Part shown: piece after piece, positions 11,853 through 22,751 of the stretch | Position numbering within the stretch: the stretch's first letter is position 1 | How the letters are laid out: each line of letters begins with the position of its first letter | Assembly (NCBI GenBank): GCA_028693395.1 | Contig: JAQUVJ010000002.1 | Location: 1 to 63,753, forward strand | Origin: Candidatus Nanoarchaeia archaeon | GTDB lineage: Archaea > Nanobdellota > Nanobdellia > Woesearchaeales > JAQUVJ01 | DNA length: 63,753 bases | Direction: 5' to 3' | Program-made: the position numbers and the translations under genes | The notes under the pieces: generated by a model | The model's input: the letters and a program-made list of their open reading frames with translations, nothing else | What the model was told of the DNA's origin: nothing | Database searches by the model: none

Positions 11853-12167
11853 TTAGACTATGAAAGTAATTCTCAGAAATTTCAGTTTGGCTCCATCAGG
11901 AAGAGTAGTGCTACCCTCGGCCAGTCTTGGACCGGAATATTGAACCACGAAAAGAGTGTCGTCCATGTCCAGTGTTACCGACTCCCTGTTGAACGTGAAT
12001 CCTTCCCAGGAAGAGGCCAGAGAATCGGCCAGTTCCTTATGACCGATAACACTCTTCGGGCTATTTTTTATAATCTCTTCAAGAGTAACAGTTTCAACAC
12101 TCATGCCGTAGTTGTTTTCCGAAATCATATTGAGAGAAAAAGCGTTGGAAACGAGAGTCTTTGCCAT
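11853..12167 (-). CDS. DUF1874 / AcrIII-1-like viral ring nuclease (candidate anti-type III CRISPR)
   Basis: True start ATG 12167 after AAGGAGGA SD; MAKTLVSNAFSLNM..., VIGHKE (catalytic His context), VVQYSGPRLAEG match STIV B116 / SIRV1 gp29 family. Confidence 0.8.
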   Translation of the reverse strand: MAKTLVSNAFSLNMISENNYGMSVETVTLEEIIKNSPKSVIGHKELADSLASSWEGFTFNRESVTLDMDDTLFVVQYSGPRLAEGSTTLPDGAKLKFLRITFIV

Positions 12168-12237
12168 TGTGAAATCCTCCTTAGAAATTGTATTTTGTCG
12201 GTCGGGTCGCCTGTTCGCTCTTCCAACCAACAAGGAT

Positions 12238-12266
12238 ATTCTATCACGTATCAATCAATCCGTCAA
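12238..12266 (-). promoter_or_regulatory. cassette promoter P2
   Basis: TTGACG-17 nt-TGA-TAGAAT. Confidence 0.75.
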
Positions 12267-13910: not shown

Positions 13911-14123
13911 GCGGAATAAATAAATTTTTCTTTTTAGGAGTATTGTGCGGAAAATATAAATTTTTATTAGATGGAATATTGTGCGGAAAATAAATTTTTA
14001 TTAGATGGATATTATGCAAAATAAATGAATTTTTATTAGATGGATAATTTATGCGAAATAAATGAATTTTTATTAGATGGGTATTTATGCGAAAAATATA
14101 AATTTTCGTGTTAGAGGTATGAT
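13911..14123 (+). repeat. six tandem 33-37-bp iteron-like repeats
   Basis: GCGRAAAATAAATGAATTTTTATTAGATGGATAWTTAT units head to tail, no spacers. Confidence 0.85.
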
Positions 14124-14217: not shown

Positions 14218-14354
14218 GTCGGCGCAATATATTTTCCTCCAAACTCTTTTTTAACGACTTATATTTTTTCAAACTATTTATAATTATTCAAACTATTTAT
14301 AATTTTTAAAGGCTAAGTACTTTTAACTTTATCATCTTTTTCTATTTTTACTAA
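14218..14354 (+). repeat. long direct repeat, copy 1
   Basis: GTCGGCGCAATATATTTTCCTCCAAACTCTTTTTTAACGACTTATATTTTTT... about 90 percent identical to 14580-14696. Confidence 0.85.
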
Positions 14355-14431
14355 TTCGTCAATTCGTAATATAGTTCTTAGGAATCATCTTTTTCGGTTA
14401 AAAGATGAGTCTTAGGAATCATCTTTTAGAC

Positions 14432-14461: not shown

Positions 14462-14579
14462 AATTAAAAAAAAACTTTTATTTTAGGAATATTTTTAGAA
14501 ATGCATTCAGAAGGTATGATATGAAATTTTTATAATCGTTCTCAAAATATAAAAATTGCGTCGACCAAAAATTTATCCA

Positions 14580-14696
14580 GTCGGCGCAATATATTTTCCT
14601 CCAAACTCTTTTTTAACGACTTATATTTTTTAAACTATTTATAAAATTTTAAAGGCAAGTACTTTTAACTTTATCATCTTTTTCTATTTTCACTAA
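14580..14696 (+). repeat. long direct repeat, copy 2
   Basis: Paralog of 14218-14354; followed by AATTCCTAAGA/TCTTAGGAATT 11-bp hairpin. Confidence 0.85.
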
Positions 14697-14773
14697 ATTA
14701 TACATAATTCCTAAGATTCATTTTTATATGAGTCTTAGGAATTATTTTATGAACAAAAATATTTCAGAAAATT

Positions 14774-14932
14774 TTAGCTATTATCAATCATATCTTGAGT
14801 ATAAAATGTCTTGCTAGTTTCATAATCACATTCCATACAAAATACTTTGACTGTTATGGAATTTTCTTCAGGATTAGCACAATAATCAAAATCTGTTTCT
14901 TTTCCGCATACAGGACAAAAAACACTATTCAC
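14774..14932 (-). CDS. zinc-ribbon mini-protein, 52 aa
   Basis: GAAAGGAG RBS, GTG start; CPVC...CMEC. Confidence 0.5.
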   Translation of the reverse strand: MNSVFCPVCGKETDFDYCANPEENSITVKVFCMECDYETSKTFYTQDMIDNS

Positions 14933-14956
14933 TACACAACACTCCTTTCAAAATAT

Positions 14957-19099: not shown

Positions 19100-19945
19100 T
19101 TAAACTATTTCATAATCCCATTTTTCCCAGTTATTTATATTGTACAATTTCCCTTTCCAATTAAACTTTATTTTATTATCCATATCAACTACAACAAATG
19201 TATCAGCTTTCTCTCCTGCAATCGTTACATAACCATTCAATATTCTAATTCTTTCACCATGATTCAATTTTCTCTTTTTTGTATTTTGTTTCATGGAAGT
19301 ACTGGAATATCCAGTCGTTTCAACCTTTTTTCTCCAATTATATGAACGCTCTTTTTCCTCATATGAATAATTATCAGCCAAATCCAAATTATCCAACTTA
19401 TTAAACATTTCCATCGGCATTCGTATTAAATGTTCAAATGTCAACGTATCCATATAATCAGAATACTCAGGAATCAAAGTAATATCAGCATTATGAATAG
19501 TTTTTTTAATTTTCATTTTCATCGCTGCTGCAACACGATTTCCCATAACATCCAAATACAAGATATAACCTTCACGACCACCCTTATGAATAAATATATC
19601 AATTATAATATTTTTTCCAAACAAATCCATTATAGCCTCTTTCAATGTCTTTCCCCTATAACTAACATTAAAACGAGAATTCAACCTATCATAAAACGTT
19701 TCAATAATTACTTCCCTTTTCTCTTCTCTCTTGGTACTAGTAGCTTTTTCATATCCCCTATAGCTACCAGGCATATATCCAGATACCAAATACTTTTTCA
19801 TTATACCATACTCTTCATTGAGCATCTTCATCATCTCGTCATTCCCACCACGATCAGGATGATGTATTCTTACTAATCTCCTATACTCATTCTTCAATAC
19901 AGAATCATCTTTGATCACAGAAGTATTAAAAAACTGCATCATCAT
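19100..19945 (-). CDS. J-domain (DnaJ-like) protein, 281 aa
   Basis: N-terminal YRRLVRIHHPDRGGNDEMMKMLNEEY with HPD tripeptide; rest unrecognised. Confidence 0.75.
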   Translation of the reverse strand: MMMQFFNTSVIKDDSVLKNEYRRLVRIHHPDRGGNDEMMKMLNEEYGIMKKYLVSGYMPGSYRGYEKATSTKREEKREVIIETFYDRLNSRFNVSYRGKTLKEAIMDLFGKNIIIDIFIHKGGREGYILYLDVMGNRVAAAMKMKIKKTIHNADITLIPEYSDYMDTLTFEHLIRMPMEMFNKLDNLDLADNYSYEEKERSYNWRKKVETTGYSSTSMKQNTKKRKLNHGERIRILNGYVTIAGEKADTFVVVDMDNKIKFNWKGKLYNINNWEKWDYEIV

Positions 19946-20178
19946 CGACCCCCCACAAGAATAAACTGATTCACTCTTTTCATCGGAATGACTGAACTAT
20001 TAAACTGTTCAATACTCATCCCAATTATCTCATCATCACTAACTACAATTACCTGATTGTTTTTATCATTGCTATATGTAAAACGAAATGACACCCTATC
20101 CGACCCCATTATCCCACGAAAAACTCCCCTAATTCTCGGATTCTTCGGATCAGTCTTTTTCATCTCATACTTCATCAT
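19942..20178 (-). CDS. hypothetical protein, 78 aa
   Basis: True start ATG 20178 after AGAGGAG; stop overlaps J-domain gene start (ATGA). Confidence 0.6.
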   Translation of the reverse strand: MMKYEMKKTDPKNPRIRGVFRGIMGSDRVSFRFTYSNDKNNQVIVVSDDEIIGMSIEQFNSSVIPMKRVNQFILVGGR

Positions 20179-20207
20179 CTCATCTCCTCTCATCAACCAA
20201 CAAGGAT

Positions 20208-20236
20208 ATTCTATCATATTAAAATCAATCCGTCAA
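20208..20236 (-). promoter_or_regulatory. cassette promoter P8
   Basis: TTGACG-17 nt-TGA-TAGAAT; leader truncated (no hairpin). Confidence 0.75.
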
Positions 20237-20272
20237 TAAGAAAATATGATGTTTATATTTTCAGATAACTTA

Positions 20273-20479
20273 AAAATGAACTTTTCCCTGATAGGTACTT
20301 AAAACTTTTTCCATTTGATTACTTTTCCCTGATAGGTACTTAAAACTTTTTCCAGCTTATAAACTATTCAAAATATCCAAAATTAAAGAAACCATTGCAA
20401 TTACCAGCTTTATCAAAATTTTACAACCCTTCTGAAAATAAAATGAACTTTTCCCTGATAGGTACTTATAAACTTTTTT
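20273..20479. repeat. three copies of a 33-40-nt CRISPR-repeat-like unit
   Basis: ACTTTTCCCTGATAGGTACTTAAAACTTTTTCC at 20280-20312, 20321-20353, 20447-20478; gaps 8 nt and about 93 nt. Confidence 0.8.
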
Positions 20480-20497
20480 AAAAATTTATAAATTCTT

Positions 20498-20629
20498 TGC
20501 AACAGTGTTGCATTTTAATATAAATTCTTTGCAACAGTGTTGCATTTTAATATAAATTTATATTAAAAAATAATATAAAACTCATAGACCGTTGCAAACA
20601 CTATATAAAAGTTTTGCAACAGTGTTGCA
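20498..20629. promoter_or_regulatory. three palindromic operator-like sites
   Basis: TGCAACAGTGTTGCA at 20498-20512, 20530-20544, 20615-20629. Confidence 0.6.
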
Positions 20630-20724
20630 TTAAAAGTCGGTGTGTATACAGAATACTTTACACAAAATTATCCACAAAAATATATTACACTATATGTAGC
20701 ATTAAAAAAAATATATTACACTAA

Positions 20725-21000
20725 TCCTTAGAGCATTATAGAGCTTAGAGCATCGTATAGAGCTATCCTTAGAGCATCGTATAGAGCTATCCTTAGAGCT
20801 TAGAGCTATCCTTAGAGCATCGTATAGAGCATTATAGAGCTTAGAGCATCGTATAGAGCATTATAGAGCTTAGAGCTATCCTTAGAGCATTGTATAGAGC
20901 TTAGAGCTATCCTTAGAGCATTGTATAGAGCTATCCTTAGAGTTATTTTTAGAGTATTGTATAAGGACGTATAGAGTATTGTATAGAGTATAAGATATAG
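20725..21000 (+). repeat. mosaic minisatellite built on TAGAGC
   Basis: 20 exact TAGAGC in about 215 bp, spaced 7/10/12 bp in units TTAGAGC, ATTATAGAGC, ATCGTATAGAGC, TATCCTTAGAGC; decays to TAGAG toward 21000. Confidence 0.9.
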
Positions 21001-21220
21001 AATTATTTAAAGAATTAGGTATATGTATTAAATTGTATGGATATTGATTATTGCTGTATTTGTTTAATTTATGGGAAATATTTGTTTTATATGGGAATTA
21101 GGTATATGTATTAAATTGTGTGGGGAGTTTTGTATACAATATAACCGTTGGAAACACTGATAAAATGCTGATAAAATGAAAATGGAATTTATTTTGAAAA
21201 AGTTTTTGTTTATATGAAAA

Positions 21221-21245
21221 AGAGCGGGTTTTGGGGACCCGCTCT
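21221..21245. terminator. intrinsic terminator (family copy 1 of 3)
   Basis: AGAGCGGGT/ACCCGCTCT stem, A5/T5 flanks; same hairpin at 22727-22751 and 25994-26018. Confidence 0.8.
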
Positions 21246-21291
21246 TTTTCTATCGTATATTATTTAGATTTAGATTTCAAAATTCTCTCCT

Positions 21292-21465
21292 TTATATTGA
21301 TGAACTGATTTCTTGTTTTACTTTTTCGTTAGAGTAGAACTGGCTCTTTATTTCTATATGATTGCAATTTTTATTCATACATATTTTTTTGTATGTAAAC
21401 TTATCTACTTTCTCCAGAATGGAATAGTCCATATTACTTTGACATGATGGGCATCTAAAAATCAT
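21292..21465 (-). CDS. zinc-ribbon mini-protein, 57 aa
   Basis: AAGGAGGAG RBS; MIFRCPSCQSN...CMNKNC; distal gene of hicA-like cassette. Confidence 0.55.
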   Translation of the reverse strand: MIFRCPSCQSNMDYSILEKVDKFTYKKICMNKNCNHIEIKSQFYSNEKVKQEISSSI

Positions 21466-22726: not shown

Positions 22727-22751
22727 AGAGCGGGTTTTGGGGACCTGCTCT
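22727..22751. terminator. intrinsic terminator (family copy 2)
   Basis: AGAGCGGGT/ACCTGCTCT stem with A7/T5 flanks. Confidence 0.75.

Follow-up and report, generated by a model that had tools for sequence, protein, structure and literature searches.

The stretch examined here (the window: 63,753 nt, the first 63.7 kb of the 73-kb contig JAQUVJ010000002.1) carries, at positions 20273–20479, three related non-coding units just upstream of an early promoter of what is a bacterial phage. They raise the question of whether their likeness to CRISPR repeats betrays a weapon against host immunity or whether they serve the phage as DNA. The first-pass annotation had read them as solitary CRISPR-repeat-like units, possibly an RNA-based anti-CRISPR or a mini-array. 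Our analysis weakened the RNA anti-CRISPR idea and favors, at about an even chance, cis-acting, same-orientation, iteron-like putative binding sites for a sequence-specific DNA-binding protein.

The units read on the minus strand. Copy 1 (20273–20312) consists of AAAATGA plus a 33-mer, ACTTTTCCCTGATAGGTACTTAAAACTTTTTCC, located at 20280–20312, and copy 2 (20321–20353) is an exact second instance of this 33-mer. The third occurrence previously described does exist at 20447, within copy 3 (20440–20479), but it is inexact: identity is limited to the first 22–23 nt (ACTTTTCCCTGATAGGTACTTA) and is followed by a 1-nt insertion and further changes (TAAACTTTTTTAA). The block common to all three copies is therefore 22 nt long, TAAGTACCTATCAGGGAAAAGT on the minus strand, and occupies 20280–20301, 20321–20342 and 20447–20468. 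The remaining details of the original description stood, namely the 8 nt (ATTTGATT) between copies 1 and 2, the 93 nt between the end of copy 2 and the start of copy 3, the AAAATGA ahead of copies 1 and 3, and the minus-strand reading of the unit as GTTTTAAGTACCTATCAGGGAAAAGT.

Searches with the 20-mer core at up to 3 mismatches returned three matches in the window, against 0.00 expected from 100 shuffles, and no further copy was found in the whole 1.12-Mb assembly with up to 5 substitutions allowed. Identity falls from 100% within the unit to ~50% in the 8 nt after copies 1 and 2, and the shared flanks are mosaic. Because of this sharp drop at its edges, the unit is a discrete element rather than merely a fresh tandem duplication, and the invariance of the 22-nt block next to flanks of ~50% identity points to constraint on that element. 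Spacing is likewise regular with respect to the helix: copies 1 and 2 lie 41 bp apart from start to start (~4 helical turns), and copies 2 and 3 lie 126 bp apart (12.0 turns). As RNA, the units form only a 3-bp stem, fold worse than shuffles on the minus strand (z +0.96 to +1.39) and are weaker than shuffles on both strands, and they yielded no Rfam match.

The units start exactly at the upstream edge of the homology of an early promoter cassette (20188–20278, minus strand), one of about 12–15 paralogous copies between 10 and 27 kb. This cassette comprises an upstream A/T element, a −35 box TTGACG (20236–20231), a TG-extended −10 box TAGAAT (20213–20208) and a leader. Relative to the transcription start inferred from it (~20201), the units span about −79 to −267, with the invariant block of copy 1 at about −79 to −100. 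All three sit in a 1,074-bp stretch (20218–21291), bounded by a conserved terminator and the early sigma70 promoter cassette, in which we found no open reading frame (ORF) of at least 37 aa and no plausible gene. Read along the minus strand, this gap runs from the terminator through two 29-mers, a 265-bp TAGAGC minisatellite, two 17-mers, a DnaA box and 15-bp palindromes placed around an all-AT palindrome to unit 3, and from there, after 93 nt, to units 2 and 1 and the cassette. Besides the units, it holds at least five other local repeat families, all of them confined to it.

From this layout we infer that a phage early protein or a host protein would bind the 22-nt invariant block at its three sites, the units forming the promoter-proximal part of a 1.07-kb ORF-free multi-repeat hub in a large lytic phage. 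Because the sites are on one face of the helix (41 and 126 bp), bound copies could act cooperatively or bring the DNA into a loop. A nucleoprotein complex may then assemble from these sites, the operator-like palindromes, the all-AT palindrome, the DnaA box and the TAGAGC array, and would either mark a replication origin or control the early promoter next to the units and how the early region is handled. We rate an origin-like role about as likely as control of that promoter; taken singly, the former is unlikely, as is promoter or architectural control, and other DNA-level roles have a slim chance. If the units are indeed DNA docking sites, they would add another example of the poorly understood non-coding repeat hubs found among the early genes of large lytic phages, and their main use would be in locating the origin of an uncultivated phage family or the switch of its early genes.

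Several components of the gap could contribute to such a complex. Three perfect 15-bp palindromes, TGCAACAGTGTTGCA (20498–20512, 20530–20544 and 20615–20629), are unique to it; two of them lie within a perfect 32-bp tandem repeat, and none occurs elsewhere in the assembly. They resemble operator sites bound by a dimeric repressor, and control of the Aca type would suit an island of anti-defence genes. T-runs come after them on the plus strand, as in weak terminators. GC content in the gap is lowest at a 24-bp perfect all-A/T palindrome (TTTTAATATAAA/TTTATATTAAAA; 20545–20568), a candidate easily melted segment, located ~100 bp from a perfect DnaA box, TTATCCACA (20668–20676, plus strand). This box is the sole perfect one on either strand of the window, and we estimate that one per 64 kb is about the chance level. 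The sign of the local GC skew changes within the gap, at ~20.6–20.7 kb.

Further along the plus strand, the 17-mer AAAAATATATTACACTA occurs in two exact copies 31 bp apart (20676–20723), adjacent to the mosaic TAGAGC minisatellite (20725–20990), which is built from the units CTTAGAGC, ATCGTATAGAGC and TATCC. A 29-mer (GAATTAGGTATATGTATTAAATTGT.TGG) follows in two copies 83 bp apart (21012–21123), where the plus strand is nearly devoid of C. At 21216–21250 (minus strand), the operon upstream closes with the conserved intrinsic terminator, GAGCGGGT...ACCCGCTC between runs of A and T, further instances of which lie at 22728 and 25995. The minisatellite contains TTAGAGCTAT six times, a stretch that doubles as 10 nt of the type II-A repeat in S. 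pyogenes (GTTTTAGAGCTATG...); this case shows that short CRISPR look-alikes arise easily by chance in the gap.

Two kinds of known DNA elements invite comparison. Iteron origins, such as the lambda origin and those of iteron plasmids, are built on 17–22-bp repeats. Like these origins, the units are same-orientation repeats whose spacing keeps to helical turns, with a very AT-rich segment next to them and a DnaA box; unlike them, they are longer (22–33 bp), only three in number and unevenly spaced, and no initiator gene was recognized beside them. The closest described parallel of the gap as a whole is the set of untranslated repeat regions of phage T5, including that of the injection stop signal. 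These 0.2–1.2-kb regions lie among the pre-early genes and contain direct and inverted repeats, palindromes and DnaA boxes (Davison, bioRxiv 10.1101/866236), a description that the gap fits: it is likewise a kilobase-scale ORF-free stretch among early genes with several direct-repeat families, palindromes, inverted repeats, a consensus DnaA box and a presumed role as a cis-acting DNA site. On the other hand, the two share no sequence similarity, T5 has eight paired DnaA boxes against one here, and the T5 regions are conserved across 25 relatives (10.1101/866236), whereas the gap is known from this contig fragment alone.

Other observations weigh against protein-binding sites. Cumulative GC skew has no large-scale turning point at 20–21 kb, there is a single DnaA box, and no initiator gene was recognized among the neighboring ORFs. 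Fourteen other promoter cassettes lack the units. None of the neighboring ORFs matched a DNA-binding family, no binding protein was identified, and the AlphaFold model of the J-domain protein encoded in the operon behind the promoter (described below) was unusable, with a predicted local distance difference test score (pLDDT) of 38. The unit core resembles the conserved center of a type I-B CRISPR repeat family that is widespread, a likeness which an assignment as binding sites has to take as coincidence. Finally, no relatives carrying this region were found in any collection scanned: the exact unit 20-mer and the promoter-cassette patterns were both absent from the viral contig collection, blastn against phages and plasmids gave no match, a protein-based locus search with the 281-aa downstream gene returned no related locus, exact-protein look-up of the flanking genes returned no record, and the related phage contigs L054 and L055 lack the units.

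The alternative that survives best, although we regard it as unlikely, is that the units are a functionless by-product of local copying, through slippage or recombination in non-essential spacer DNA, and merely the youngest surviving copies. Copied modules abound in the region (promoter cassettes, terminators, the perfect 32-bp tandem repeat, the minisatellite), the units are found nowhere else, and no function-linked signal in the form of a promoter, a structure or an ORF was detected for them. A plain recent duplication is nonetheless disfavored because it would have carried the flanks along, and identity instead falls abruptly from 100% to background at the unit edges. In the same direction argue the 93 nt of unrelated sequence between copies 2 and 3, the mosaic flanks (matching between copies 1 and 3 on one side and between copies 1 and 2 on the other) and the spacing on whole helical turns.

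The likeness to CRISPR repeats must be weighed more closely. The repeat that the first-pass annotation had named, GTTTTTATCGTACCTATGAGGAATTGAAAC, is real: it is published as the type I-B repeat of C. thermocellum (PMC3737339), and its processing leaves an 8-nt AUUGAAAC tag (PMC3479195, PMC3737339). The proposed resemblance of the core was borne out and even exceeded, since natural type I-B repeats closer than that one contain the exact unit core, GTACCTATCAGG. These came to light when pairs of unit cores 25–55 nt apart were sought in 185,579 species genomes and in 241 million metagenome records. Real arrays with the repeat GTTTTTAG(A/C)GTACCTATCAGGAATTGAAAC and a 65–67-bp period were recovered from Syntrophomonas wolfei, a Syntrophomonadaceae metagenome-assembled genome (MAG) and many fermenter metagenomes, and they adjoin type I-B cas genes (Cas6, Cas8b, Cas7, Cas5, Cas3, Cas4 and Cas1b). 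The scan otherwise returned only unrelated coding or tandem repeats, and in none of its arrays does the repeat run on past the core as the unit does.

Within this 30-nt family (C. thermocellum GTTTTTATCGTACCTATGAGGAATTGAAAC; S. wolfei GTTTTTAGCGTACCTATCAGGAATTGAAAC), the core (A)GTACCTATCAGG is identical to that of the units, including the CCT...AGG mini-stem, and the GTTTT start of the unit lies 2 nt closer to the core than in a real repeat. Arrays with the TACCTATNAGG core were present in 84 of the 401 genomes scanned from one phylum; a control pattern gave 0. The variants listed from these 84 genomes conserve the core and a 3' (A/G)AT(T/G)GAAAC tag, while their 5' part varies. The units, by contrast, do not keep the AG(C/A)(C/G) positions before the core and lack the (A/G)ATTGAAAC tag; as had been noted, the ATTGAAAC handle is missing, and GAAAAGT stands after the core instead. 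Moreover, the CRISPR-like part is not what sets the pattern of conservation in the three copies: the non-CRISPR GAAAAGT is invariant, while GTTTT varies in copy 3. A working array had already been discounted on account of the spacing, and rightly so: inter-unit gaps of 8 and 93 nt compare with ~36-nt spacers and 65–67-bp periods in real arrays, and the units have neither the ~30–40-nt spacers nor the retained 3' tag of a CRISPR array or mini-array.

Scoring was done against the closest repeats from the array scans and the C. thermocellum repeat. The units and GTTTTTAG(A/C)GTACCTATCAGGAATTGAAAC have 12–13 contiguous bases in common; the best ungapped match covers 13 of 30 nt (43% coverage), and a gapped alignment over repeat nt 1–23 reaches 21 of 24 columns (87.5% identity). 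The A variant scored 26.3 bits and the S. wolfei repeat 24.3 bits, and with the C. thermocellum repeat as the query the units were not the top match in the window. The gapped score of the units is 18, a value attained or exceeded by 0.7–4.7 × 10^-5 of random 30-mers, so that 0.12–0.83 chance matches are expected among 17,823 known repeats. Of the sequence around the core, the 5' flank adds little to the match (p = 0.04) and the 3' flank is at chance (p = 0.5–0.9).

Described RNA anti-CRISPRs (Racrs; Camara-Wilpert et al. 2023, Nature 623:601, PMC10651486) resemble the units in being intergenic repeat-like sequences in phages with anti-defence genes; the units also share with a real CRISPR repeat its central segment, in coding-strand orientation. 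SRUFinder, the tool used to find solitary repeat units, requires blastn-short matches with ≥90% identity, ≥50% (partial) or ≥90% (full) coverage and ≥41.1 bits, and no other full or partial copy within 100 bp (PMC10651486). The units are intergenic, as such loci should be, but with 12–13 contiguous nt, 43% coverage and 26.3 bits they fall short of both the identity/coverage and the bit-score cut-offs. They also differ from Racrs in having three copies rather than one, no promoter directly upstream and no 3' handle part. Calling them solitary was mistaken, copies 1 and 2 being 41 bp apart from start to start and copy 3 lying 93 nt further on.

Expression as a dedicated RNA is also difficult to argue. 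No strong promoter of their own was seen for the units, and a conserved terminator stands upstream. Within 250 bp upstream, the range in which a promoter would be sought, the only candidate for driving minus-strand transcription through the units is a sigma70-like match, TTGCAA-16-TATTAT (20597–20570, minus strand; 9 of 12 positions). This belongs to a class found at chance frequency (15 promoter-like matches observed versus 12.3 in shuffles), with the terminator further upstream.

A decoy that acts on Cas6 is what would remain of the anti-CRISPR idea. A minus-strand transcript would present the GUACCUAUCAGGGA mini-hairpin of a type I-B/III repeat without the AUUGAAAC tag, and the Cas6 of the host would have three sites on each transcript to bind and perhaps cut. 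No usable CRISPR RNA would result, and Cas6 would be titrated from the precursor. Such a decoy would act beside the AcrIII-1-like ring nuclease and may be switched by the three operator-like palindromes just upstream. The identity of GTACCTATCAGG to the core of real type I-B repeats, the 21 of 24 gapped columns, the fact that the shared part is the conserved center of the family (TACCTATNAGG, in 84 of 401 genomes against 0 for the control) and the agreement of the unit orientation with the coding strand are all consistent with it. So is the occurrence in one early island of ArdA and an AcrIII-1-like gene, a type III countermeasure, given that known Racrs neighbor acr genes and work by way of Cas6 and Cas7 (PMC10651486). 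In addition, what the units share with the repeat is precisely the mini-hairpin portion adjoining the Cas6 cut site, and because cutting leaves the 8-nt AUUGAAAC tag (PMC3479195, PMC3737339), the core belongs to the part that only Cas6 would see.

We nevertheless hold this decoy to be decidedly improbable. The units fail SRUFinder on bits, coverage and solitariness, and their score is one that chance alone could furnish. They lack the 3' (A/G)AT(T/G)GAAAC tag, the most conserved part of the listed variants, their three-copy conservation does not track the CRISPR-like part, and no scanned array repeat continues like the unit beyond the core. They have no convincing promoter, a terminator upstream and only a 3-bp stem. 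Nor is there a link to the organisms that carry the closest repeat: none of the 1,099 unique spacers from the matching arrays matched the phage contig or its relatives, with nothing longer than 16–19 nt. An RNA anti-CRISPR or solitary repeat unit, as originally proposed, is thus not supported, with 26.3 bits, 43% coverage, a near-chance score and neither a convincing promoter nor RNA structure beyond the 3-bp stem. Were the decoy real, phages would disarm Cas6 with a truncated repeat that the coverage, score and solitariness filters of Racr finders reject, and RNA anti-CRISPRs would be under-counted because current finders reject truncated repeats by design. As a calibration, a by-eye match of a 12–13-nt core to a very common CRISPR repeat family is about what chance yields; a link to a host, or evidence at the RNA level, is needed before such a match is called a mimic.

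Some other role as RNA has only a very slim chance. The units could belong to a small RNA or a long leader from the weak promoter at 20597–20570, or to a plus-strand antisense RNA that ends at two hairpin and T-run sites (20498–20554); the repeated block would be a site for an RNA-binding protein other than Cas6. In favor are the sigma70-like match 100 nt upstream of them (minus strand), the two terminator-like hairpin and T-run sites just downstream of the units on the plus strand, and a self-contained tRNA gene with its own promoter in the same island. However, promoter-like matches are about as frequent as chance predicts, a plus-strand promoter to the left of the units was not found, folding is below that of shuffles on both strands, and Rfam gave no match. 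A phage-specific promoter was rejected as the identity of the unit, the block being found nowhere else in 73 kb. A mini-ORF on the plus strand of copies 1 and 3 (ATG AAC TTT TCC CTG ATA GGT ACT TA(A/T)) was also rejected: it lacks a ribosome-binding site, copy 2 does not keep the frame, and all neighboring genes run on the opposite strand.

Full repeats of the I-B family do occur in viral DNA. Four viral contigs with this family all keep the 3' tag. The IMG/VR contigs L059, L060 and L061 carry one or two full-length copies beside degenerate ones; they are bona fide mini-array or SRU-like (solitary repeat unit-like) loci of the family and would serve as positive comparators. A Syntrophomonas-type type I-B array was also present on a Candidatus Micrarchaeota MAG contig (JAHKLX010000099.1, L014), whose first listed spacer contexts are the same as those of the metagenome contig Ga0334889_1000192 (L021); this is probably another binning error.

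The contig itself is that of a large lytic bacterial phage misbinned with an archaeal genome. It has 26.6% GC, against ~21–22% in the other contigs of the bin, and encodes NadR-like, PnuC, NAMPT and Prs proteins, an ATP-dependent DNA ligase only ~29% identical to SPO1-like phage ligases, a WGR-PARP protein, RNA ligases 1 and 2, a UvsX-like recombinase and a tRNA-Leu. Sigma70 promoters, an SLH porin and phage enzymes are among its phage features. Because the contig is a bacterial phage, the archaeal bin is not its host, and a host assignment taken from the bin (a ~21% GC archaeal genome) would be wrong. The nearest named cellular homologues of the SLH-anchored porin are from Synergistota (~40% identity), and copies at 50–60% identity occur on related phage contigs. 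The archaeal bin contains no CRISPR array, and its order-level relatives gave single matches only, at chance level. Around the units, no cas genes were seen in the ORFs scanned. Contigs carrying the closest repeat have 37–46% GC and spacers that do not target this phage. The GC of phage T4 is far below that of E. coli, and the GC difference is on that account a weak argument alone.

Between 10 and 27 kb, every gene is on the minus strand, in short operons, each headed by a paralogous sigma70 promoter cassette (TTGACGGAT, 17 nt, TG-extended −10), and many operons close with the conserved terminator. The cargo of this early island includes ArdA, the self-contained tRNA gene and the AcrIII-1-like ORF. 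The latter, reported ~8 kb from the units, is indeed present at 11853–12254; its match to STIV_B116-like in Pfam (E = 0.0016, 18.9 bits) is below the gathering score.

The promoter beside the units precedes two genes. The first (19942–20178, minus strand; 78 aa, no family match) probably begins at the ATG at 20178, after GAGGAG, because the listed 91-aa ORF (19942–20217) begins upstream of the inferred transcription start. A homologue of the 91-aa ORF on contig L057 (1–324) is the C-terminal part of a longer ORF with a LVNTRWAEDDISG motif, presumably reminiscent of terminase large-subunit ATPases. The second gene (19100–19945, minus strand) encodes a 281-aa protein with an N-terminal J-domain (HPD motif, IHHPDRGGN) that, judging from its sequence, would recruit host DnaK. 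Its sole relative, 66% identical, is on a 1.3-kb contig that lacks the gap.

A second repeat-rich gap, 1.1 kb long, lies at 13.87–15.0 kb. It contains a tandem array of 5–5.5 direct 36-nt repeats (13911–14122), a ~150-nt module duplicated at about 14220–14410 and 14570–14720, and hairpin terminators. The 36-nt array is directly upstream of the cassette at 13.8 kb, a position equivalent to that of the units. Kinship between the unit and the 36-nt repeat (13.94–14.12 kb) was considered; the best ungapped alignment, 21 of 29 positions, is only suggestive because shuffled queries reach at least 21 in the window in 9% of trials. Each of the two gaps is preceded by a small minus-strand ORF with a CxxC...CxxC zinc ribbon, of 57 aa in the case of the unit-bearing gap (21292–21465, the last gene before it) and of about 52 aa in the other (at about 14776–14934), and these two proteins are candidate repeat binders.

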